Of a stretch of DNA of 64,000 bases, positions 21,322 through 33,328 are shown one piece after another. The notes beneath the pieces are model-generated. The model was not told the origin of the DNA. It made no database searches and saw nothing but the letters and a program-made list of their open reading frames with translations. This DNA is from Actinomycetota bacterium. GTDB taxonomy: Bacteria > Actinomycetota > Thermoleophilia > BMS3ABIN01. A program made the position numbers and the translations under genes. The DNA is taken from assembly GCA_016235065.1 (NCBI GenBank), contig JACRMB010000010.1, positions 6,281 through 70,280 of the forward strand, read 5' to 3'. Within the stretch, counting starts at the first letter, position 1. Every line of letters begins with the position of its first letter.

Positions 21322-21708
21322 ATGGAATCAGAATTTTCGTTTACATTAGGTGTCGTACCAACTCTACTGATCAGTCTTGCGGTTTATGTGTACTACTCAT
21401 ACTCGTTGATGGTGATCGCCCACAAGACGGACACTGGTAGCGCCTGGATGGCGTGGGTGCCGATCCTCAACCTGCTGCTCATGTGCAGGGTCGCCGGAAG
21501 GCCCGGATGGTGGCTGGTGCTGATGTTAATACCCCTGGTTAACATTGTCATGATGCTTGTCGTCTGGATGGGCATCGCCGAGGCCAGAGGCTTCGCCAGC
21601 TGGTGGGGCATCATGATGATCGTCCCGTTCGTCAATGTCATCGTTCCGGGATACCTGGCTTTCGCTGAAGGGCATGGGGTGTCGCACGGAACCCCGATCC
21701 ATCACTGA
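21322..21708 (+). CDS. Small 3-TM membrane protein, paralog A of a tandem triplicated family
   Basis: 128 aa. Conserved WVPILN, AEARGF.SWWG and VPFVN..PGYLAF motifs. AAGGGG Shine-Dalgarno. Confidence 0.65.
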   Translation: MESEFSFTLGVVPTLLISLAVYVYYSYSLMVIAHKTDTGSAWMAWVPILNLLLMCRVAGRPGWWLVLMLIPLVNIVMMLVVWMGIAEARGFASWWGIMMIVPFVNVIVPGYLAFAEGHGVSHGTPIHH

Positions 21709-22353: not shown

Positions 22354-22639
22354 GCCGGACAACCGTCACAACGACGCTGCCCATATAAACTACGTTTGAA
22401 CGGAAAAGCCGCCATCCGGGGGCTTTTCCGCTTTCTGCGTCAGTAGATCTCCACCAGCCAGCCGGCGTCCTGCCGGCAATAATCCAGTCATACGGACCAC
22501 CCGGTTATCGGATGAACTGAATCCCACAGTCCTGCTCAATTATCAGCCCACGATGCCGACAGAGGGTTAAGCCAGAACCAGCCGAAGAGTGGCATGCTCC
22601 ACGCTTCACAACAGATCAATAAAAAAAGGGGTGTTCTTT

Positions 22640-22981
22640 ATGAGGTCTTCAGGAGGATCCGATTTTATCATCATCGCCGGGCTGATTCTGTATGCCTGGC
22701 TTACTTGCTGCCTGTACCGGATAGCAGTGAAGGTAGGCATGCATAATGCCAGCCTTGCCTTCATCCCCTTAGTAAACATGATGCTGATCTGCGCCATGAT
22801 AGACAAGCCTGCGTGGTTTGCAATATTGTTTTTTATTCCGGTGGTTGGCTTTTTCTGGAGCATAATCGTGTGGATGAGACTCAGTGAGGCTGTCGGGCAC
22901 TCACAATGGTGGGGGCTGGCGATGTTGTTGCCTGTCTTCAACCTGGCCATACCCGGATACCTGGCGTTCTCCAGATCCTGA
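22640..22981 (+). CDS. Small 3-TM membrane protein, paralog C
   Basis: 113 aa with the same motifs. AAGGGGTG Shine-Dalgarno. Its 3' flank of about 30 nt nearly duplicates that of paralog B. Confidence 0.65.
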   Translation: MRSSGGSDFIIIAGLILYAWLTCCLYRIAVKVGMHNASLAFIPLVNMMLICAMIDKPAWFAILFFIPVVGFFWSIIVWMRLSEAVGHSQWWGLAMLLPVFNLAIPGYLAFSRS

Positions 22982-23079
22982 GCCGGACAGCCGTCACTAC
23001 GACGTCTGCCAAAATAGGGTTTCATCTTTTGTTCGAAGGGGAGAGTAACGCGAGACAACATCTGTCTGACGGGAGGAAT

Positions 23080-23568
23080 ATGAACTTCAGGCTACATAAG
23101 TCGGCTGCGTCAATGGTGCTTCCCATTTTGCTGGTGGCAGTCGCCATCACTATCGCTGGTTGCGGCAGCGAAGGCACAACATCAGTGGAAACGAAAACCG
23201 CTACGGCCAGAACCGTGCCTGTGCGGACTACCACGGTGAACACAGGGACGGTGACAGTCACGGAAGCAGACGAGGGATCTACGGTGAACCTGGCTGCAGG
23301 AGCTAAGCTTCAGGTCTTACTGAAAAGCAATCCAACAACCGGATATCACTGGGTCGCTTCGGCGGACCAGGGCTGTCTGCAGCAGGCGGGGGATGCCGTC
23401 TACACGCCTGATCCGAACCCTGAAGGCATGGTCGGCACCGGAGGGAAGGACACCTTCACATTCAATGCCGTCTCGCCGTGCCAGGCCTCCCTGTTGATGA
23501 ACTACCTGAGTCCGGCCAATCAGCCGTCGGAAACGACCTTCAGCATCACCGTCAATATCACGGCATAG
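23080..23568 (+). CDS. Chagasin-family (MEROPS I42) cysteine-peptidase inhibitor lipoprotein
   Basis: Lipoprotein signal (LLVAVAITIAGC), NPTTGYHW motif and GMVGTGG motif. GGGAGGA Shine-Dalgarno. Confidence 0.65.
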   Translation: MNFRLHKSAASMVLPILLVAVAITIAGCGSEGTTSVETKTATARTVPVRTTTVNTGTVTVTEADEGSTVNLAAGAKLQVLLKSNPTTGYHWVASADQGCLQQAGDAVYTPDPNPEGMVGTGGKDTFTFNAVSPCQASLLMNYLSPANQPSETTFSITVNITA

Positions 23569-24226: not shown

Positions 24227-25516
24227 TTACTCGCTCGTCTTTTCCTCTTCCTCGCCCTCGAACCTGAGGTCCTGGTGATGGAGGATATGTCCCATCTTCG
24301 CCTTCTTGGTGGCGAGGTATGCCACGTTCTCACACTGGGGCGGCATCTCGATTGGCACTCTTTCCACGATCTTGAGCCCATATCCTTCCAGACCCTTGAT
24401 CTTTTTTGGGTTATTGGTCATCTGGCGGATAGTAGTCAGACCAAGGTCCACCAGTATCTGGGCGCCGATGCCATAATCGCGAAGGTCAGCGGGAAAGCCG
24501 AGCTCCTCGTTGGCCTGGACCGTGTCCATGCCCTGCTCCTGCAGTTCGTAAGCACGCAGCTTGTTGAGGATGCCGATGCCGCGTCCTTCCTGTGACATGT
24601 AAAGCAGAACGCCCTTGCCGTCCTCGTCGATCATGCGCAGCGCATGGTTGAGCTGCTCACCGCAGTCGCAGCGCATGGAGTGGAAGACATCGCCGGTCAG
24701 GCATTCCGAGTGCACCCGCACCAGCACGTTCTCCGCGCCGTCCACGTCACCCTTGACCAGAGCCACATGCTCCTCATTATCCAGCAGGCTGCGGAAACCG
24801 ATGGCGCGGAAGTCGCCATATCTCGTCGGGAGCCGCGCGTCGGCGACACGCTGCACCAGCTTCTCGTTCTTGCGCCGGTACTTGATCAGGTCGGCGACGG
24901 TTACCATCTTGAGGTTGTGCTTCTTGCAGTAGGGGATCAGGTCCGGCACTCTCGACATGGTGCCGTCCTCGTTCATGATCTCGCAGATGACGCCGGCGGG
25001 CTCCAGCCCGGCAAGACGCGCCAGGTCGACGCCGGCTTCGGTCTGGCCGGTGCGCTCAAGCACTCCGCCCGGTTTGGCCCTCAGTGGGAACACATGGCCG
25101 GGCTGCACCAGATCAGTGGGCTTGGCGCCTGGCTTGATGGCGGTCTGGATGGTGTGCGCCCGGTCGGCTGCCGAGATGCCGGTGGTGACGCCGTGGCGCG
25201 CTTCCACGGAAACCGTGAAGGCGGTACTGAAGGTGGCCTCGTTGTTCTGGACCATCTGGGGCAGGTCGAGTTCGATGCACTTCTCCGGGGTAAGGGTCAG
25301 GCAGATGAGCCCGCGCCCGTACATGGCCATGAAGTTGATGGCGTCCGGCGTGGCGAACTGGGCTGCCATGGTCAGGTCACCCTCATTCTCCCTGTCCTCA
25401 TCATCGCAGACGACGACTATCTTGCCGGCCTTGATGTCCTCGATTGCTTCTTCGATGCTGCTGAACGGCGAGTCCGCAGCTTTTGCTTCCTGGTTTTCCA
25501 TTTCCTTTTCTCCCAT
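24227..25516 (-). CDS. ribBA: Bifunctional 3,4-dihydroxy-2-butanone-4-phosphate synthase / GTP cyclohydrolase II
   Basis: DHBP synthase N-terminal half plus a GTP cyclohydrolase II half (CDCGEQ). Start taken at ATG 25516 (GGAAGGA upstream); an alternative ATG lies at 25501. Confidence 0.9.
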
Positions 25517-25642
25517 TTTTCCTTCCTGCTCCCTAAGTTGTTTGACACTTTGCAGTATTTCTATTGCTGACACTTTATATATTCATACAATCGCTATTCG
25601 AATCAGCGGACCCCTGAAGCGGTCCCGCCTGACAGCCAGAAT

Positions 25643-26296
25643 CTACAAAAATCCCCCCTCTGCCAGCTTTTCAAGGGTCAGGCCGCCTTCGCCATGGCCT
25701 CCGGGAAGACCGCCGCGCATGATCTTCTCAACATACTTGCCCAGCACGTCGGCCTCAAGGTTCACAAAGTAGCCGACTCCATGGTGGCCAAGGGTTGTGA
25801 CTTTGACCGTATGCGGGATCAGCGAGACGCTGAACTGCTCTCGCTCCAGCCTGGCGATCGTCAGGCTGATGCCGTCGATGCCGATCGAGCCCTGGGGCAG
25901 CAGGTAGCGCCGGATCTCTTCCGGAGCTGAAAATGTATAAAAGATAGCGTTGCCTTCAGGACGGATGGAGACGATCTTGCCGACGGCGTCAACGTGGCCC
26001 AGCATCAGATGCCCCCCGAGCCGCGCCGAAAGCGTCAGAGCTCTTTCCAGGTTGACGATGCTGCCACGCTTGAGATGTCCCAGGTTTGTCTTCCTCAGGG
26101 TCTCGGGCATCACGTCGGCTGAGAAAGTGCCGCTGCCAAAATCCCTGGCGGTCAGACAGACACCGTTGACCGCGATGGAATCGCCCAGCTGGCATCCCTC
26201 GAGGACCTTGTCCGCTTCCACTGTGATGACGCCCGAGTCGGAACCCATCTCCAGGCTGACGAGCTTGCCAAGTTCTTCAACGATACCGGTGAACAT
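25643..26296 (-). CDS. ribE: Riboflavin synthase alpha subunit
   Basis: MFTGIVEELG start; two lumazine-binding repeats. Confidence 0.9.
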   Translation of the reverse strand: MFTGIVEELGKLVSLEMGSDSGVITVEADKVLEGCQLGDSIAVNGVCLTARDFGSGTFSADVMPETLRKTNLGHLKRGSIVNLERALTLSARLGGHLMLGHVDAVGKIVSIRPEGNAIFYTFSAPEEIRRYLLPQGSIGIDGISLTIARLEREQFSVSLIPHTVKVTTLGHHGVGYFVNLEADVLGKYVEKIMRGGLPGGHGEGGLTLEKLAEGGFL

Positions 26297-26332
26297 CTAG
26301 CGAACCTCCTCGCTGGGGAAAAGAAAGGCCAT

Positions 26333-27457
26333 CTACCATTCCTCCTGAGTGGTGTAAGCGGTTATCAGCACGTCATCGCCGACCGCCTTGTGTTTGACCC
26401 TGTAAAGCGGCGTCGCCTCGCCCACCAGCCGGAAACCGCGCCCTTCGACCGGAGTGCGCGCATCCTTGCCGCCGATGAATTTCGGCGCTACAAAAGTCAT
26501 GACCTTGTCGATAGCCCCGGACTCCACGAAAGAAGCCGCAAGCGTCGGTCCACCTTCAAGCAGGAGGCTGAGGGCAGCGGGCTCGCGGGAGCCAAGATGC
26601 AGCAGCGCTTCGCCTACGTTCACCTGGCTGTCCAGGGTCCCGGTCCGGACGACCTCGACTCCGGCGTCCTTGAGCGCCTTCACTTTTTCCTGGGTTGCGG
26701 CCTCGGTGACGAAGACCAGCGTCGCTACTTCACCGGCGGTCTTCACAAGCTGGCTCTCCAGGGACAGTCCAGCCTTCGAATCGAACACGACCCTTAGAGG
26801 TTGCTTGTAATCGCCGGGTATGCGGCAGGTGAGCATGGGATCGTCTATCTGGGCGGTGCCGCTGCCACAGGCGATGGCGTCGACCTCGCCCCGGAGCGCA
26901 TGTACCAGCGCCCGGCTTTCCTCGCCGGATATCCACTTGGAATCGCCAGTCGAGGTCGCTATCTTGCCATCCAGGCTCATGGCGCTCTTGAAGATGACAA
27001 AAGGCAGCCCGGTAACCGCATGCTTGCGGAAGGCTTCGTTCTGGGAACGCGCCCGGGCGGCCAGCAGACCGTCGAGCACTTCGACTTCGATGCCAGCCTC
27101 ACGCAGCTGCTCCAGGCCCTTGCCATTGACCTTCGATGACGGATCGAGAGAAGCGACGACGACCCGGGCGATGCCCGCATCGATCAGCGCGTTGCTGCAT
27201 GGGCCTGTGCGGCCATGATGGCAGCAGGGCTCGAGGGTCACGAAGATAGTGGCACCCCTGATGTCGCCGGTTGCCGATTTGATCGCGGCCACCTCGGCAT
27301 GATCGTCTCCGGCACGCTTGTGATAGCCCTCGCCGATGACTTCCTCGCCACGAGCGATCACAGCACCCACGGTAGGATTGGGGCTGGTCTTGCCCCTGGC
27401 CAGATCGGCCAGGTTGAGCGCCCTTTGCATGAAACTTATGTCGAGTCCGGTAACCAT
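26333..27457 (-). CDS. ribD: Bifunctional riboflavin biosynthesis deaminase/reductase
   Basis: CMP/dCMP deaminase motif (HAE...PCxxC) plus a reductase domain, 374 aa. Confidence 0.9.
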   Translation of the reverse strand: MVTGLDISFMQRALNLADLARGKTSPNPTVGAVIARGEEVIGEGYHKRAGDDHAEVAAIKSATGDIRGATIFVTLEPCCHHGRTGPCSNALIDAGIARVVVASLDPSSKVNGKGLEQLREAGIEVEVLDGLLAARARSQNEAFRKHAVTGLPFVIFKSAMSLDGKIATSTGDSKWISGEESRALVHALRGEVDAIACGSGTAQIDDPMLTCRIPGDYKQPLRVVFDSKAGLSLESQLVKTAGEVATLVFVTEAATQEKVKALKDAGVEVVRTGTLDSQVNVGEALLHLGSREPAALSLLLEGGPTLAASFVESGAIDKVMTFVAPKFIGGKDARTPVEGRGFRLVGEATPLYRVKHKAVGDDVLITAYTTQEEW

Positions 27458-27654
27458 GTATGATCGTCTTCCCTTATCGCCGCTCGCGGCTACTTCTTTA
27501 AACAGGCCGCTCCTGCTGTTTCCTGAGCAGGCCGCCCCATAGATACTGAGGCAATCTGCGATTCACGTCTGCGTTTTTATTCAGCGAAAGGCTTCGGGGG
27601 GATCATGAGGGGGATGAAGACGTCCAATTTCATCTGCTACCGGGAGGCCGCCCA

Positions 27655-27825
<171 letters not shown>

Positions 27826-27957
27826 AATCAGCTATTCAGTTTTTTAGGGCCGATAATGCAGGCCGCACAGAAAAATAATAACAGAAAAACGGGGGAAGAT
27901 TCCAGACCTGCCAGTTCAGAGCCGCCAGTCAGGATGACAGCCTAGGGAAACAGTCAG

Positions 27958-28647
27958 CTAACCGGCCGCGCGCGCGGCCATGGAAGCCATCAGGCTTCGC
28001 GCCGCGGCAGCCTGATCGCTGGCGCCAAATACGGCCGAGCCGGCAACGAACAGGTTGGCACCGGTGTCCAGAACGGCTTCGATGGTATCAGGAGCAACGC
28101 CGCCATCCACCTCGAGTCCTACATGGTCGGGCAGCAGCTGGCGCGCCCGGGCTATCTTTGGCAGCACCGAGGCGATGAACTTCTGGCCGCTGAAACCGGG
28201 ATTGACCGTCATCATCAGGGCGAAATCGATGTCGCCGGTGACCTCCTGCAGCACGTTTAGCGGCGTCGCCGGATTCAGTGAGACGCCCGCCTTGCAGCCG
28301 GCAGCGCGGATCTGCGAGAGGGTCATGTTCAGGTGGGTGCAGGCTTCGGCATGGACGCAGATCCAGTCCGAACCGGCCCTGGCGAAATCGTCGATGTACC
28401 GTTCGGGCGCGTCTATCATCAGGTGAACGTCGAGGACGCCGCCAGCGTCGTGCACAAGGTCGCGGATGCCCTCGATCACTACCGGCCCGATGGTGATGTT
28501 GGGGACGAACTGGCCGTCCATCACATCCACATGGATTACCCTGACTCCGGCATCCATCACCCGCCTGATGTCCTCGCCCAGGCACGAGAAATCGGCCGAG
28601 AGGATCGACGGGGCCAGCTGGTAGCTTGTGATCAGTTCGTCGTTCAC
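27958..28647 (-). CDS. rpe: Ribulose-phosphate 3-epimerase
   Basis: 229 aa with LAPSILSADF, HVDVMDG and MTVNPGFSGQKF motifs. Confidence 0.9.
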   Translation of the reverse strand: MNDELITSYQLAPSILSADFSCLGEDIRRVMDAGVRVIHVDVMDGQFVPNITIGPVVIEGIRDLVHDAGGVLDVHLMIDAPERYIDDFARAGSDWICVHAEACTHLNMTLSQIRAAGCKAGVSLNPATPLNVLQEVTGDIDFALMMTVNPGFSGQKFIASVLPKIARARQLLPDHVGLEVDGGVAPDTIEAVLDTGANLFVAGSAVFGASDQAAAARSLMASMAARAAG

Positions 28648-28689
28648 GGGGGTGATTCTAGCATAGATGCCACCGGCGTCGCAGCCTGT

Positions 28690-29106
28690 CTAGCGGCGGC
28701 TGGATGGTCCGAGCACACCAGTGATGAACAGGCTGATATAAAAGATCATGTATATCGCCAGCAAGGCGACGACGACTGCGCCGATGATGATCGCCCAGCG
28801 AGCGTACTTGCGCCCTTCTTCCGGAGATTCACCCCGGTCGATCTTCTTCAGTTCCATGACGCCGAGGATGATCCCCGCAAAAGCAGTCGCGCAGTTGGAA
28901 AAACCCACCAGAGACAGGATGAAGGCCAGGATAGCCATGTTGCCCGGACCGGTTTTCTTGACCCCGACGCCGGAGTTCGCGCACGTGCGGCAGTATAAGC
29001 TGCCATCAGGAGTCGTCATGGCGCAGCCGTAACAGAAGCTCCTGCCGCAACTGGCACACTGGCCGGCGGCAGGTTTATCCGGATGGTTTACGCAGGTCTC
29101 GCCCAT
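28690..29106 (-). CDS. DUF4190-family small membrane protein with N-terminal double CxxC zinc ribbon
   Basis: CASCGRSFCYGC...CRTC, then two TM helices with the GIILGVMELKKI motif. Its ATG overlaps the stop of the upstream gene (TGATG). Confidence 0.7.
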   Translation of the reverse strand: MGETCVNHPDKPAAGQCASCGRSFCYGCAMTTPDGSLYCRTCANSGVGVKKTGPGNMAILAFILSLVGFSNCATAFAGIILGVMELKKIDRGESPEEGRKYARWAIIIGAVVVALLAIYMIFYISLFITGVLGPSSRR

Positions 29107-29447
29107 CAGCTCCCCGTGTTGAATTCCCAGGAATAGTCACCCGTGGCTACCAGCACTATCGCCAGGATCAGATTGATCACCAGGGCGGCAATGCCGATGA
29201 TGACGCCCGCCTTGGCCATCGACTGGCCTTTGATGGAAGACTGGCCTTTCTTGATGTTGCCCAGCTCGACGATGCCGATCACGACGCCGGCCAGAGCCGG
29301 GACGCTGCAACAGAAGATCCCCAGGATCGACAGCACCAGTGAAGCAGTGGCAAGGCCGCTTGCTTTCTCAGGACGGGGCGGCATGCCTCCTGGCGTCACC
29401 GGTCCTGTCGCGGGCATTTGCGGTGGTGGTGTGCCTTCCATCATCAA
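29106..29447 (-). CDS. DUF4190-family small membrane protein with Pro-rich N-terminus
   Basis: MMEGTPPPQMPATGPVTPGGMPPRP, then two TM helices (VVIGIVELGNIKKG). AGGAGG lies upstream of the ATG pair at 29447/29444. Confidence 0.65.
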   Translation of the reverse strand: MMMEGTPPPQMPATGPVTPGGMPPRPEKASGLATASLVLSILGIFCCSVPALAGVVIGIVELGNIKKGQSSIKGQSMAKAGVIIGIAALVINLILAIVLVATGDYSWEFNTGS

Positions 29448-29457
29448 CCTCCTGGCA

Positions 29458-29874
29458 TCAGACTGGTTTGGCGGCAGACACGCCCGCAATAACGATGGCG
29501 AAGATGAATATGATCAGCCCGATGGCCATCATCGCCGTCACGATCGTGCCGATGATCGCCCCGATGAGCGCCAGGACCCTGCCCTCCTCGGGCGACTCAC
29601 CCTTCTTGATGTGGCTCAACTCCACAAAGCCGAGCACCATACCCGGCACCGCTGTGATGCAGAACATGAAACTGGCTATGGACAGGACCAGGGAAGCGAT
29701 GGCAAGGCCACCCGGGTCCTGTTTCCGCGGCCTGCAGGAACCCGTGGCTGCGCAGGACCGGCAGCAGAGCATGCCATCGGGCGTCTCCAGCAGGCATTCC
29801 TTGCAATAAGGCAGCTTGCAGCCCTGGCAGATACCGACCGCTTCACAGTCTTTATGGCTCGTACAGTCAGCCAT
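29458..29874 (-). CDS. DUF4190-family small membrane protein with N-terminal zinc ribbon
   Basis: CQGCKLPYCKEC...CCRSC, TM helices and the LGFVELSHIKKGESPEEGR motif. GGAAGGAG Shine-Dalgarno. Confidence 0.7.
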   Translation of the reverse strand: MADCTSHKDCEAVGICQGCKLPYCKECLLETPDGMLCCRSCAATGSCRPRKQDPGGLAIASLVLSIASFMFCITAVPGMVLGFVELSHIKKGESPEEGRVLALIGAIIGTIVTAMMAIGLIIFIFAIVIAGVSAAKPV

Positions 29875-29922
29875 GCGATCCTTCTCCTTCCGGTCGTGAT
29901 GCGGCCTTGGGCCGCACGCTCC

Positions 29923-30579
29923 CTAACCCTGTGACTGCAGCAGCGCCAGGACCTGGGCTTCCCAGGTGGCGTGATTGTCGAAGTGAAAGTTGGGATCGGT
30001 GATGATCGTATAGAGCCAATAGATGCCATAGATACCACAAGTGACAAAGGTCAGCAGGAGGAAGGTGATGAAATTCCTCTCGGGGATGACCATGGGCGTG
30101 ATGATCTGGTTCTCGGTCACCCCCACCTTGTTCATGACCTCGCTGGCCTTGAGCATGAAATCGTGCTCGTTGGCCTCGTGGGCACGGAAGTCGTCGTTGA
30201 GGAAGTAGTACACGTAGTAGACGATCGGGCTGACTACCAGGCAGAGCACCAGCCACAGGACCGGTGATTTGTCGCCGGCGCGATCGCGGTTGGTGGCATC
30301 CAGGTTCAGTCCCTCGAGCTGGGAGATATCCGCTTCTACCGAAGCAAGCCCGGCGGAAGAGGACTCCGCCTTCTCGCGCAGGACCTCGATCAGGTGGGTC
30401 CGGAACGATACCATGCGCTCGAAGTGCTGTTCGCGCCGTTCAAGCAGCTTGTAGATGACGTAGAACATGTAGATCCCGCAGGTGACGATCGACAGCAGGA
30501 ACGCTGTCCAGAATCCCGTCTGCCAGTCGGTGATGGTCCTTTGGCGTATGTCTGCTTCCAGATTGACCATGCTGTCCAC
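29923..30579 (-). CDS. DUF4234-family membrane protein (two internal repeats)
   Basis: Repeated TCGIY..Y.IYKL / TCGIYGIYWLYTI segments. GTG start at 30579 with AGGAGG 5 nt upstream. Confidence 0.7.
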   Translation of the reverse strand: MDSMVNLEADIRQRTITDWQTGFWTAFLLSIVTCGIYMFYVIYKLLERREQHFERMVSFRTHLIEVLREKAESSSAGLASVEADISQLEGLNLDATNRDRAGDKSPVLWLVLCLVVSPIVYYVYYFLNDDFRAHEANEHDFMLKASEVMNKVGVTENQIITPMVIPERNFITFLLLTFVTCGIYGIYWLYTIITDPNFHFDNHATWEAQVLALLQSQG

Positions 30580-30618
30580 TTGTGCCTCCTTGTCCCCGGC
30601 TTCCGGATAAAAAGCCTT

Positions 30619-30716
30619 TAGTTAGATCCTGCCTGCCAATAAAACCCCTCTAGTCATATCCTGCCTGTCAGCAAAATCTGCCTTCAGTCAAATCATGCAA
30701 GCAATCCCTGATCAGC
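30619..30716. repeat. Three imperfect tandem repeats of about 33 nt each, intergenic
   Basis: tagttagatcctgcctgccaataaaacccctc, then tagtcatatcctgcctgtcagcaaaatctgcct, then tcagtcaaatcatgcaagcaatccctgatcagc. Confidence 0.4.
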
Positions 30717-30718
30717 TT

Positions 30719-31162
30719 CTAGAGCAGACCGGTCTCGCGCCAGACGATCATCTTGATAATCCAGGCTCCCAGCAACAGCACGGCGCCACCGGCTACCAGG
30801 TGCCGGCGCAACGCCGGGCCGATCGAGAAATGAATACGATTGCGGGTGGCGACAGATACCGTTAAAACCATTGCAAGCCCCGCCGCGAGAATGAACAGCA
30901 CCGGCCCCAGAGGGTGATAGCTCAGAGACTGGCCAAGGTCAAAGCCACCCATGGCCAGGAACGAGCGTGTCATGCCACAAAACAGGCAGGGGATACCTGT
31001 CAGAGCGAAAAAGGGACAGGTGTAAAGCAGCGGCACGCTGGCCCCCGAAGCACGCAGCTCGAAATCCGGGCTTACCAGCGCCGAGATGGACAGGACCAGG
31101 AAGATCAGCGCCAGTAAGGGCAGCTCCACGACGGCAAGCTCCTGCCAGTTGACCTTCTGCAT
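30719..31162 (-). CDS. DUF2752-family membrane protein
   Basis: GIPCLFCGMTRSF motif and 4 TM helices. ATG 31162 chosen; the track's ORF extends to 31321. Confidence 0.7.
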   Translation of the reverse strand: MQKVNWQELAVVELPLLALIFLVLSISALVSPDFELRASGASVPLLYTCPFFALTGIPCLFCGMTRSFLAMGGFDLGQSLSYHPLGPVLFILAAGLAMVLTVSVATRNRIHFSIGPALRRHLVAGGAVLLLGAWIIKMIVWRETGLL

Positions 31163-31497
31163 GGATATGCCAAAGTCCCGGCCCTGATCCTGTGAGTCTT
31201 CTGCCGGGTGGTCCGCCAGCGTCAGCCGGGCAGCCTGATGTGCAGGCGCATGAAGCCTCGGCTTCGGGCGATATCTGCAATCTGAATCTATTTTTCCGAG
31301 ATTATCCGGTCCGCATGCCAAGTTGCCACCTAACCGATCTTCAAGTCTTTTGCCTCTGAATTCACAGGAAGCCTTGCATTGTCTGCTGCAGATGCATTGA
31401 AAACCGCGCAGTCAGCGTAAAACTGCGTGCTAAAGAATTAGCCGTTACGGGCTTTTATCCTGCCGGAGGGATTTTAAACTCGTGGGGGCATTTCAGG

Positions 31498-31536
31498 AGA
31501 TGACAAAGGGGCGCGGGCTTAAAGCCCGCGCCCCTG
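31498..31536 (-). terminator. Terminator hairpin downstream of hup
   Basis: ggggcgcgggc-ttaaa-gcccgcgcccc, an 11-bp stem. The U-tract is weak. Confidence 0.45.
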
Positions 31537-31617
31537 CGCGTTCAAACGATAAGCGGTCTGCTATCTCAGCGACATTGCTGACTCATAGCAGCCCTGCATG
31601 CTACAGTTCCGCCCAGC

Positions 31618-31896
31618 TTACTTTACAGCGGCCTTGAGGGCGCTGCCGGCGCTGAACTTCGGCACCTTGCTGGCCTTGATCTGGATCTTCTCTTTAGTCT
31701 GCGGGTTGATACCCTCGCGGGCAGCACGATTCTGGACGCTGAACTTGCCGAATCCGGTGAACTGTACCTCTTCGCCCTTCTTCAGCGACTCGGTGACGAC
31801 GTCGATGAAAGCGTCTACGGCGGCGGCTGCCTGCGTCTTGTTAAGATCAGACTTCGTTGCGACTGCACTTACAAATTCAGATTTTCCCACTTCCAT
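31618..31896 (-). CDS. hup: DNA-binding protein HU
   Basis: 92 aa with typical HU sequence (GFGKFSVQNRAAREGINPQT). AGGAGGT Shine-Dalgarno. Confidence 0.9.
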   Translation of the reverse strand: MEVGKSEFVSAVATKSDLNKTQAAAAVDAFIDVVTESLKKGEEVQFTGFGKFSVQNRAAREGINPQTKEKIQIKASKVPKFSAGSALKAAVK

Positions 31897-31984
31897 ACCT
31901 CCTGGTTTTTAAGGGTTTCAGAAGCTGGCGGTTATGGACACTATCAGATGGAAATCCCCTTTACAAGGCAAAAAACGAGGTTTT

Positions 31985-33328
31985 TCATTTTCCGCTGACA
32001 GTCATCTCGCCGATAAGCAGCGAAGGTGCATGGATGCTGCCACCGAATGGAACCCACCGGTTGTCGTTACCGATGACGGTGATGTTCTTCAAAATCGCCA
32101 TCAGGTTTCCGGCGATTGTTACCTCCCGCACGGGTTCTGCCAACTGTCCTCCGCGTATCAACCGGCCGGAAGCTCCCACCGAGAAATCTCCCGACACGGG
32201 GTTGGTCCCCGAGTGGATGCCGCTCACTTCCATGACATAGAAACCGCTATCCACGCCGGCGATGATCTGGTCGAGTGACGCAGTGCCTCCGGCGAGCCTG
32301 AGGTTGGTGGCTCCCACATGGGGCTGCGACCGGTACGAGCCGCGGATGCCGTTTCCGGTGGAGGGCTTGCCGTCTTTCTTGCCGGTGTATGTGTCATACA
32401 ATAATCCCTGCAAAATGCCGTCTTTTATCAGTTCGGTCACCCCCATGGGCACACCTTCGCCATCGAACGGGGCGCTGGCCATGCCGTCGGGATGGATGCC
32501 GTCGTCGGTGATGCTGAAGATCCCAGCCGCTACTTTCTGCCCCTCAAGGCCGGCGAACATGGAACGCTGTTTCTGCACCGCCTCACCTGTGAGCGCCGAA
32601 CCGATGACTCCGATCAGGCTGGCGGACACGAAGGGATCCATGACAACCGGGCAGGTCATGCTCTCACACTGGGATCCGCCGAGTAGCGCCACCGCCCGGT
32701 CCGCGGCTTCGCGGCCGCAGGCCGCGGGTTCCAGTTGTCCTGGTTCCCTTCCCGTGGTAAAGGACATGCCGGTCTGCATCTGCCCGTCCTGCAAGGCTAT
32801 CGCCTGCAGGAATGCATAACAGGTATTTTCTTCATACTGGCGGGAAAATCCCTTGGAATTTGCCATTGCGACCAATCCCTCGCCCTCGGCATAGGTAGCA
32901 GAATCCACCTGGGAGATGCGGGAATCGCGCTCCAGAGCCGTCCGCTCGATCTCACGGGTGAGCTCGATCTTCTCGGCCAGCGGCACCTGCTGCAGCTTCT
33001 CGGAATACAGATCCAGCTCGGGGAACCCGGCAGCCGGCTCGGGAAGGCCCATGAACTGGTCCCCTGCTGTCACTTCAGCGTTATCCGCAGCCTCGCGCGC
33101 CGCCGCGGCCAGAGCATCGCCGGAAAGGTCACTGGTATAGGAGAAGCCCACCGAGTCACCGCGAAAGACGCGGATGCCGACGCCACTACCGGTGGAACTC
33201 GCCAGCTCCTCGACTTCCTGCTGATAGACCCTGATCCTGGTGGACCGGGTCCTCATGGCTAAGGCTTCCGCCTGCTCGACCCCGGTCGCCACTGCCAACT
33301 CCAGGGCTTTTCGCGCGATATCAAGCAT
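31985..33328 (-). CDS. pmbA: TldD/PmbA family metalloprotease (PmbA-like)
   Basis: About 447 aa in the TldD/PmbA family. ATG 33328 (AAGGAA upstream) chosen over 33358. Confidence 0.85.
   Translation of the reverse strand: MLDIARKALELAVATGVEQAEALAMRTRSTRIRVYQQEVEELASSTGSGVGIRVFRGDSVGFSYTSDLSGDALAAAAREAADNAEVTAGDQFMGLPEPAAGFPELDLYSEKLQQVPLAEKIELTREIERTALERDSRISQVDSATYAEGEGLVAMANSKGFSRQYEENTCYAFLQAIALQDGQMQTGMSFTTGREPGQLEPAACGREAADRAVALLGGSQCESMTCPVVMDPFVSASLIGVIGSALTGEAVQKQRSMFAGLEGQKVAAGIFSITDDGIHPDGMASAPFDGEGVPMGVTELIKDGILQGLLYDTYTGKKDGKPSTGNGIRGSYRSQPHVGATNLRLAGGTASLDQIIAGVDSGFYVMEVSGIHSGTNPVSGDFSVGASGRLIRGGQLAEPVREVTIAGNLMAILKNITVIGNDNRWVPFGGSIHAPSLLIGEMTVSGK

Follow-up and report, generated by a model that had tools for sequence, protein, structure and literature searches.

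The window analysed here is a stretch of 64,000 nucleotides (nt) of contig JACRMB010000010.1, from an Actinomycetota bacterium of the Thermoleophilia (lineage BMS3ABIN01, assembly GCA_016235065.1). A minus-strand unit of five consecutive open reading frames (ORFs) at 28690–31321 lies in it between the HU gene (31618–31896) and rpe (27958–28647). In an original prediction, made from the sequence alone, these five had been described as a single functional module of small membrane proteins from three families of no known function, namely DUF2752, DUF4234 and DUF4190. The present analysis centres on the pair formed by DUF2752 and a long form of DUF4234, and on the three DUF4190 paralogs that follow it. 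The genes, in the order of reading, are:

30719–31321, minus strand: DUF2752 gene (30719–31162 in the original prediction); Pfam PF10825, E 1.4e-14, 54.3 bits, profile positions 1–46 of 49; dN/dS 0.17.
29923–30579, minus strand: long DUF4234 gene, 218 amino acids (aa), GTG start; Pfam PF14018, E 2.8e-19, 69.4 bits, in two stretches; dN/dS 0.05.
29458–29874, minus strand: DUF4190 paralog C, 138 aa, Cys/His finger; Pfam PF13828, E 1.2e-13, 51.0 bits, profile positions 1–61 of 62; dN/dS 0.05.
29106–29444, minus strand: DUF4190 paralog B, 112 aa, Pro-rich N-terminus; Pfam PF13828, E 6.1e-12, 45.5 bits, profile positions 1–61 of 62; dN/dS 0.15.
28690–29106, minus strand: DUF4190 paralog A, 138 aa, Cys/His finger; Pfam PF13828, E 3.4e-11, 43.2 bits, profile positions 1–61 of 62; dN/dS 0.09.

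All five predicted genes were confirmed, and each protein exceeded the Pfam gathering score of its own family (27 bits for PF10825, 25.3 bits for PF14018 and 35 bits for PF13828). The ratios of nonsynonymous to synonymous divergence (dN/dS) were obtained against the nearest relative found (L111), in which DUF4234 is 92% identical and synonymous divergence (dS) is about 0.8–0.9; the value for rpe in the same comparison was 0.07. Because all five ratios lie between 0.05 and 0.17, these are real, constrained genes. Literature searches agreed with the description of the families as having no known function, since only incidental mentions of the DUF names and of the Pfam or InterPro accessions were returned. 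Full-text searches on the abundant families DUF4190, DUF4234, DUF2752, TM2 and RDD turned up almost nothing and no functional statement. The role of RDD has been described as unknown in the Lipocone paper (PMC12419801). For the cluster proteins, no match above threshold was obtained from PDB sequences, NCBIfam (no equivalog) or PADLOC, and no PDB fold matched either.

The region is conserved membrane biology, neither an artefact nor a mobile or defence element. The copy number varies among relatives, and membrane proteins of the small hairpin type can be toxic, as might suit a mobile, toxin-like or anti-phage element encoding holin-like or abortive-infection membrane proteins. However, such an origin is extremely unlikely: no PADLOC defence model matched any of the five proteins at E ≤ 0.01, purifying selection is strong, and the flanks are housekeeping genes that are syntenic across deep relatives. 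Moreover, the G+C content of the region (0.56–0.61 in 2-kb windows) falls inside the range of the window (0.55–0.65), and its boundaries carry no integrase, repeats or tRNA.

For the DUF2752 gene, the TTG at 31321 (protein of 200 aa) is the most likely start codon, rather than the ATG at 31162 (147 aa) chosen in the original prediction, because an AGGTGG Shine-Dalgarno sequence lies 5' of the TTG and the N-terminal stretch MAC(N/G)xxNxG is conserved. In relatives, the third-position changes in this stretch are synonymous, and ATG, GTG or TTG is found at the same start position. A sigma-70-like match at 31301–31329 was rejected as a promoter, since this stretch behaves as coding sequence. The predicted CLFCGMTR motif is present (as PCLFCGMTR), with C, C, G and T invariant and R nearly so among 43 homologues. 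It is part of a larger motif, C-x9-C-x2-C-G-x-T-R...H, which sits between helices 1 and 2 and reads CPFFALTGIPCLFCGMTR...HPLGP in the window; the upstream C, the P and the R are conserved at 90% or more in 43 sequences, and the H at 90% or more in 18 sequences.

Topology prediction placed the N-terminus of DUF2752 inside, followed by three membrane helices. Long and short members alike begin with a basic stretch and a helix, have the Cys motif within a few residues of it, and continue with helices 2 and 3, which a strongly basic loop connects. Because of the positive-inside rule, the Cys motif is predicted to face, or to dip into, the outer half of the membrane. In the AlphaFold2 (AF2) model, with a predicted local distance difference test score (pLDDT) of 92.6, short helices surround the motif. 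A relationship to the Cys-rich N-domain of prepilin peptidases was considered and rejected, since no such Pfam match occurred in the 43 members even at E ≤ 5; the same scan returned only two weak matches to RseC_MucC. No informative extra domain was found in the long DUF2752 ORFs of metagenome loci, and the one case of a fusion to Octopine_DH among these loci is probably an artefact.

Species-representative genomes were searched with DUF2752 only, with no selection on its neighbours, which yielded 14 loci, 12 of them actinobacterial. A long DUF4234 gene lay directly downstream of DUF2752 in all 12 actinobacterial loci, and the genomic contexts of the pair are of at least three unrelated kinds. 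Besides the slot between HU and rpe, it was found in the arrangement CorA-DUF2752-DUF4234-(zinc-ribbon protein)-DUF4190-XseB and, in five of the 12 loci, near genes of energy-coupling factor (ECF) transporters, metallo-beta-lactamase-fold proteins or Rnf. The states seen include DUF4234 alone between HU and rpe, DUF2752-DUF4234-DUF4282, DUF2752-DUF4234-DUF4190 x3-DUF4282, and DUF2752 followed by a DUF4234-DUF4190 fusion and then DUF4190. In this fusion (P0048; L011 6001–7143), a long DUF4234 is joined to a DUF4190 of the Pro-rich type by a Pro/Ala/Gly-rich linker of about 95 aa, and the identical protein is present on 10 contigs.

The proposal of a single functional module was therefore borne out for the strongly linked DUF2752 and long DUF4234, whose co-occurrence had been suggested as a check, and only in part for DUF4190, which is facultative and present in about half of the loci. 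The association of DUF4190 is nonetheless real, because it recurs with the pair in the CorA...XseB context and is found fused to DUF4234. The core of the system is the DUF2752–DUF4234 pair, with DUF4190 as a recurrent facultative addition, as judged from these neighbourhoods. The number of DUF4190 copies ranges from 0 to 3; DUF4282 alone follows the pair in three loci, and the remaining loci have neither DUF4190 nor DUF4282. The two-helix DUF4282 gene stands just before rpe, beside or instead of DUF4190, in L111 (6132–6398), L009 (6919–7263) and L014 (7334–7585), and none was found in the window. In one actinobacterial lineage, a CorA-family gene abuts the start of DUF2752 or overlaps it by 4 nt (L005, 4501–5958; L008, 4513–5990), which suggests translational coupling of a CorA-family divalent-cation channel to the pair in that lineage.

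A wider pattern emerged when metagenomes were scanned for the DUF2752 motif, which gave 80 loci (56 after de-duplication) and 90 same-strand ORFs immediately next to DUF2752. According to Pfam, 34 of these 90 belong to seven families, distributed over the 56 loci as follows:

DUF4234: 7 upstream and 6 downstream of DUF2752.
TM2: 8 upstream and 1 downstream.
RDD: 2 upstream and 1 downstream.
Yip1: 2 upstream and 1 downstream.
DUF4190: 1 upstream and 2 downstream.
DUF975: 1 upstream and 1 downstream.
DUF4064: 0 upstream and 1 downstream.

Zinc-ribbon models matched 4–5 of the upstream neighbours, and a convergent DUF4234 was found in at least 5 further DUF2752 loci. In separate look-ups of distant DUF2752 genes, a TM2 gene was located 6 nt upstream in one case and a zinc-ribbon RDD gene 10 nt upstream in another. 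As a control, ORFs of similar size that do not adjoin DUF2752 (n=89) were taken from the same loci, and no partner family was present among the best 25 of their 63 families. The order varies among upstream, downstream and convergent, as expected of functional linkage. Judging from these neighbourhoods, DUF2752 would often be the constant half of a gene pair whose other half, a small membrane protein, varies. The window conforms to this pattern, with DUF2752 directly adjoined by DUF4234 and then by the three DUF4190 genes. The pattern is apparently undescribed so far, and it unites unrelated domain families (DUF4190, DUF4234, DUF2752, TM2 and RDD) into one testable problem.

The same evidence bears on a simpler explanation, namely that the genes are inherited together without joint function, through operon inertia, while DUF4190 and DUF4282 are independent genes that have gathered in the interval from HU to rpe, a permissive slot. 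The content of this slot ranges from a lone DUF4234 to six genes, other orphan genes for small membrane proteins (DUF5684) lie close by, in relatives as well as in the window, and the 139-nt spacer between DUF2752 and DUF4234 could hold promoter-like repeats of its own. On the other hand, the pair was seen in three gene orders and in no fewer than three contexts unrelated to one another, DUF4190 follows it outside the HU...rpe slot and has been fused to DUF4234, and the neighbour families are strongly enriched over the controls of the same loci. Co-inheritance of this kind is thus considered unlikely, and confidence in a functional coupling of the DUF2752–DUF4234 pair, as read from sequence comparisons, is fairly high.

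The long DUF4234 gene begins at a GTG preceded by an AAGGAGG Shine-Dalgarno sequence, and its product also matches a subfamily of about 215 aa over the full length. Homologues (n=238) are mostly 212–231 aa long, with a coverage of 93–100%, and are named as proteins of Thermoleophilia or Actinobacteria metagenome-assembled genomes. With E ≤ 1e-30 as the cut-off, the family comprises 128 representative clusters; relaxing it to E ≤ 1e-10 gives 503. Three hydrophobic segments were recognized, two of which bear a TCG motif. The AF2 model is all-helical (pLDDT 96.3, predicted template modelling score 0.91), and in it each hydrophobic segment consists of a 10-residue helix, a break (TCG, VSP and TCG, respectively) and a long helix that runs into a bundle. 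In an alignment of 57 homologues, the polar residues D18, R48, R49, H52, R55, H134, R168, D195 and E207 were invariant, and E138, N197 and H199 nearly so.

Distant proteins with a long DUF4234 (P0211, P0228, P0281, P0272 and P0201) have a C-terminal FHA domain and an N-terminal GYF_2 or double zinc-ribbon domain, hinting at networks of Ser/Thr phosphorylation and of proline-rich-peptide recognition. Some distant members have four hydrophobic segments, and one member with three segments carries an N-terminal zinc ribbon. Because of the domains attached at both termini in these relatives, both ends of DUF4234 and its conserved polar bundle are predicted to lie in the cytoplasm. With both ends on that side, at least the first segment of the three-segment DUF4234 would be a re-entrant hairpin with its TCG turn deep in the membrane, and segments 2 and 3 might be either membrane-spanning or re-entrant.

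Among the DUF4190 paralogs, A and C are 44% identical to each other, and B shares 28–38% identity with either. The Pro-rich N-terminus noted earlier for B was seen in the translation. N-terminal Cys zinc fingers were likewise found on A and C, but they are not the double C-x2-C ribbons previously described: the pattern is CxxH, CxxC-x4-CxxC, x10 and CxxC, with eight Cys/His ligands that are conserved in relatives. In Pfam, this finger resembles a B-box only below threshold, with 17.5 bits for zf-B_box (cut-off 24.1) and 18.6–18.8 bits for ANCHR-like_BBOX (cut-off 27). Paralog B carries a CC in its first hydrophobic segment and gave a weak match to the NCBIfam entry 'CCC motif membrane protein'.

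The arrangement of potential ligands raises the possibility of divalent-metal handling, in which Zn, Co, Mg or Cu would be bound by DUF2752 through its Cys3-His site and by DUF4234 through its His/Asp/Glu cluster, in order to sense or buffer the metal or to accompany its transport across the membrane. A CPxCG-type knuckle ([LP] in the scan pattern) together with a further Cys and a His forms a classical four-ligand metal pattern. Also in line with metal binding are the invariant H52, H134, D195 and E207 and the near-invariant E138, N197 and H199 of DUF4234, the eight-ligand fingers of the accessory proteins, and the CorA gene directly upstream of DUF2752 in a second lineage. Nevertheless, the CorA link is confined to one lineage and is missing from the recurrent neighbours in the 56 metagenomic loci, the unit contains no metal-responsive regulator or riboswitch, and no similarity to a known transporter or metal sensor was found. 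Metal handling as the function of the unit is therefore quite unlikely.

Conserved cysteines inside hydrophobic segments can be claimed for all three families of the cluster. The Cys in the middle of the first segment of DUF4190 was invariant in 18 of 18 cluster-linked members, and the first TCG of the long DUF4234 was kept in 27 of 27 DUF2752-linked loci. In stand-alone DUF4234 proteins, TFG/TLG or TLG/TLG takes the place of the TCG pair, and DUF2752 and DUF4190 were missing from all four tested loci of this Cys-less clade, two of which had been predicted before the look-up. Other neighbours of DUF2752 also have such cysteines, including GGCGIW or TCGG in TM2, FCGG in Yip1-like proteins and several cysteines in DUF975-like proteins. 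A 'CG' in a hydrophobic segment was present in 23 of 48 adjacent membrane proteins versus four of 43 controls (p = 6e-5, uncorrected for relatedness).

The cysteine pattern also bears on a scaffold function, in which hairpin proteins would anchor adaptors of the actinobacterial Ser/Thr-kinase–FHA networks that govern envelope growth, with DUF2752 only as a structural co-anchor whose cysteines would stabilize its own fold. The FHA, GYF_2 and zinc-ribbon domains of distant long DUF4234 proteins are in line with this view, and so are the Pro-rich tails of DUF4190 B and of relatives, which are possible GYF ligands. However, neither a kinase nor an FHA or cell-wall gene occurs in or beside the unit in the window, and the joint loss of the DUF4234 cysteines and DUF2752 would be left unexplained. 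A phospho-signalling scaffold is thus also rather improbable. Even if the proteins acted only as a scaffold, partners would still be named for many orphan actinobacterial membrane proteins.

Several sequence features at the borders and within the unit are relevant to its transcription:

31507–31535, minus strand: intrinsic-terminator hairpin 3' of HU; 13-bp G+C stem, dG -32.6 kcal/mol, z -6.0 versus shuffles.
31436–31479, minus strand: promoter-like block GTTTAAAA-N7-GGCAGGATAAAAG-N8-GGCTAAT upstream of DUF2752; conserved in the aligned HU...rpe loci and in L111.
30607–30694, minus strand: imperfect tandem repeats between DUF2752 and DUF4234, each with a GGCAGGAT core; detected with Tandem Repeats Finder.
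28655–28663, minus strand: extended -10 element TGCTAGAAT, 7 nt before the rpe GTG, recognized by conservation; putative downstream boundary of the unit.
27700–27820, minus strand: flavin mononucleotide (FMN) riboswitch RF00050 upstream of ribD; 111 bits, E 5.8e-26.

The terminator hairpin was kept in eight of nine aligned loci, the exception being L019, and the block at 31436–31479 is probably the promoter of the unit. At the other end, the -10 element of rpe, TG(C/T)TA(G/A)AAT (TGATAGAAT in L011), was present in 10 of 10 loci, independently of the upstream content. Because this extended -10 lies only 7 nt (8 in L011) from the start codon, a GTG that is replaced by ATG in L011, in all 10 loci, a leaderless rpe mRNA is suggested. 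With a conserved terminator and a promoter-like block upstream and a promoter of rpe's own downstream, the five genes would form one bounded transcription unit. Within it, DUF2752 and DUF4234 are separated by 139 nt and DUF4234 and the first DUF4190 by 48 nt, and tight packing is limited to the three DUF4190 genes. The TGATG overlap of stop and start codons (stop of B, start of A; 29104–29108) and the gap of 10–13 nt next to 29458 were both observed as predicted. The translational coupling deduced from them is plausible only among the DUF4190 genes.

Three imperfect repeats had been predicted in the spacer; 1.9 copies of a 32-nt unit with 82% matches were recovered, and the third copy is degenerate. 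GGCAGGAT occurs in them at 30626 and 30658, and the same core is found in the upstream promoter-like block. The repeats are missing from the nearest relative and may represent a duplicated promoter or operator piece specific to this genome. As a window-wide regulatory motif, GGCAGGAT was rejected, since its three other copies are intragenic and the count is at chance level. In addition, a hairpin, GCGCAGT...ACTGCGC, with GGTTTTC behind it was noted in the leader of about 100 nt that separates the TTG start from the promoter-like block (31321–31425, minus strand); it is attenuator-like and not obviously conserved in L111.

Taken together, the preferred reading is that the five genes form one transcription unit and that their membrane proteins act together as a cysteine-dependent assembly centred on DUF2752, which is put forward tentatively, at somewhat less than an even chance. 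DUF2752 would form the fixed core together with its main partner, the long DUF4234. The three DUF4190 proteins would be interchangeable accessory subunits, each with two hydrophobic segments and a zinc finger or a Pro-rich tail. Cysteines inside the membrane segments of the partners might be engaged by DUF2752, whether by sharing a metal site with them, by thiol-disulfide exchange or by modifying them covalently, with an assembled or matured membrane platform as the outcome. As cytoplasmic modules, the zinc fingers, the Pro-rich tails, the DUF4234 bundle and, in relatives, the FHA and GYF domains could then recruit or sense cytoplasmic factors. Confidence in a cysteine-based mechanism, as suggested by the conserved residues, is modest, and any specific physiological role, including the membrane-stress or envelope system first proposed, would be a guess.

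Several observations weigh against such an assembly. The Cys-less DUF4234 proteins form a single clade, so that their co-loss with DUF2752 counts as one stably maintained event and not as four. RDD partners are mostly without an intramembrane Cys, and the CG enrichment, to which no phylogenetic correction was applied, is driven by two families, DUF4234 and TM2. The total Cys content of hydrophobic segments did not differ significantly between adjacent proteins and controls (2.9% vs 2.1%, p = 0.08). Moreover, the pair is not obligatory, since one entire clade has DUF4234 on its own, and DUF4190 follows the pair in only about 11 of 22 assessable distinct loci. The sidedness of the motif and of the partner domains comes only from the positive-inside rule and the fusions, and the transcription unit is deduced from sequence motifs alone.

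Some known systems offer points of comparison. DsbB and VKOR are small polytopic thiol oxidoreductases, with a CxxC and further Cys near the outer face, that act on the cysteines of partner proteins. DUF2752 is similarly small and polytopic, with a CxxC and an additional Cys predicted near the outer membrane face. It differs in having three helices in place of four, in lacking any sequence or fold match (the best E in Foldseek was 6.5, and the sequence search of the PDB gave no hit), and in having no thioredoxin-like partner in the cluster. DHHC S-acyltransferases and Lgt-type enzymes are polytopic proteins with a Cys/His-rich interface motif that modify cysteines of many unrelated membrane proteins. 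The likeness of DUF2752 to them is a functional analogy only, in that one constant gene is accompanied by many variable partner families; DUF2752 has no DHHC motif and showed no homology to these enzymes, and its own motif is predicted on the outer side, where acyl-CoA is unavailable.

By this analogy, DUF2752 could be a membrane enzyme or chaperone acting on the buried cysteines of DUF4234, DUF4190, TM2, Yip1-like and DUF975 proteins, for example by lipidation or cross-linking, a proposal that is regarded as very doubtful. If it were true, the cluster would consist of one enzyme gene and four client genes, and DUF2752 would be a bacterial counterpart, by analogy, of DHHC enzymes acting on IFITM-like hairpin proteins. 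More generally, a true cysteine link would imply new intramembrane chemistry or assembly in bacteria. In most cases the partner in the pattern combines a cytoplasmic adaptor module with a cysteine inside the membrane, so that specific residues and pairs are indicated.

DUF4190 resembles IFITM/CD225 (dispanin) proteins in its cytoplasmic N-region, a long first segment with one or two central Cys, a short basic loop and a second membrane helix. The central di-cysteine of IFITM3 is S-palmitoylated, and mycobacterial IFITMs with the motif are palmitoylated in human cells, their bacterial function being unstudied (PMC4488726). However, DUF4190 gave no match to PF04505 in Pfam at E ≤ 0.01. Homology to IFITM3 was rejected, with an hhalign probability of 4% for 18 DUF4190 sequences against human IFITM3. 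The TM2, RDD, Yip1-like and DUF975 proteins occupy the same place beside DUF2752 as the partners in the cluster and share the combination of a zinc-ribbon or Pro-rich cytoplasmic region with a compact membrane domain, but they have other folds and belong to other families. To our knowledge, none of them has an established bacterial function.

No RNA family was found in the unit, and the FMN riboswitch downstream was the sole match above the Rfam cut-off within 25000–33000; the rib operon has its own leader, distinct from rpe and from the membrane cluster. Beyond this operon, two genes for small DUF5684 membrane proteins were detected on the plus strand (21322–21708, E 2.6e-13; 22589–22981, E 2.1e-9), which are similarly placed in the relatives L004 and L009. 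They are adjoined by a gene for a chagasin-family I42 peptidase inhibitor (22906–23568, plus strand).

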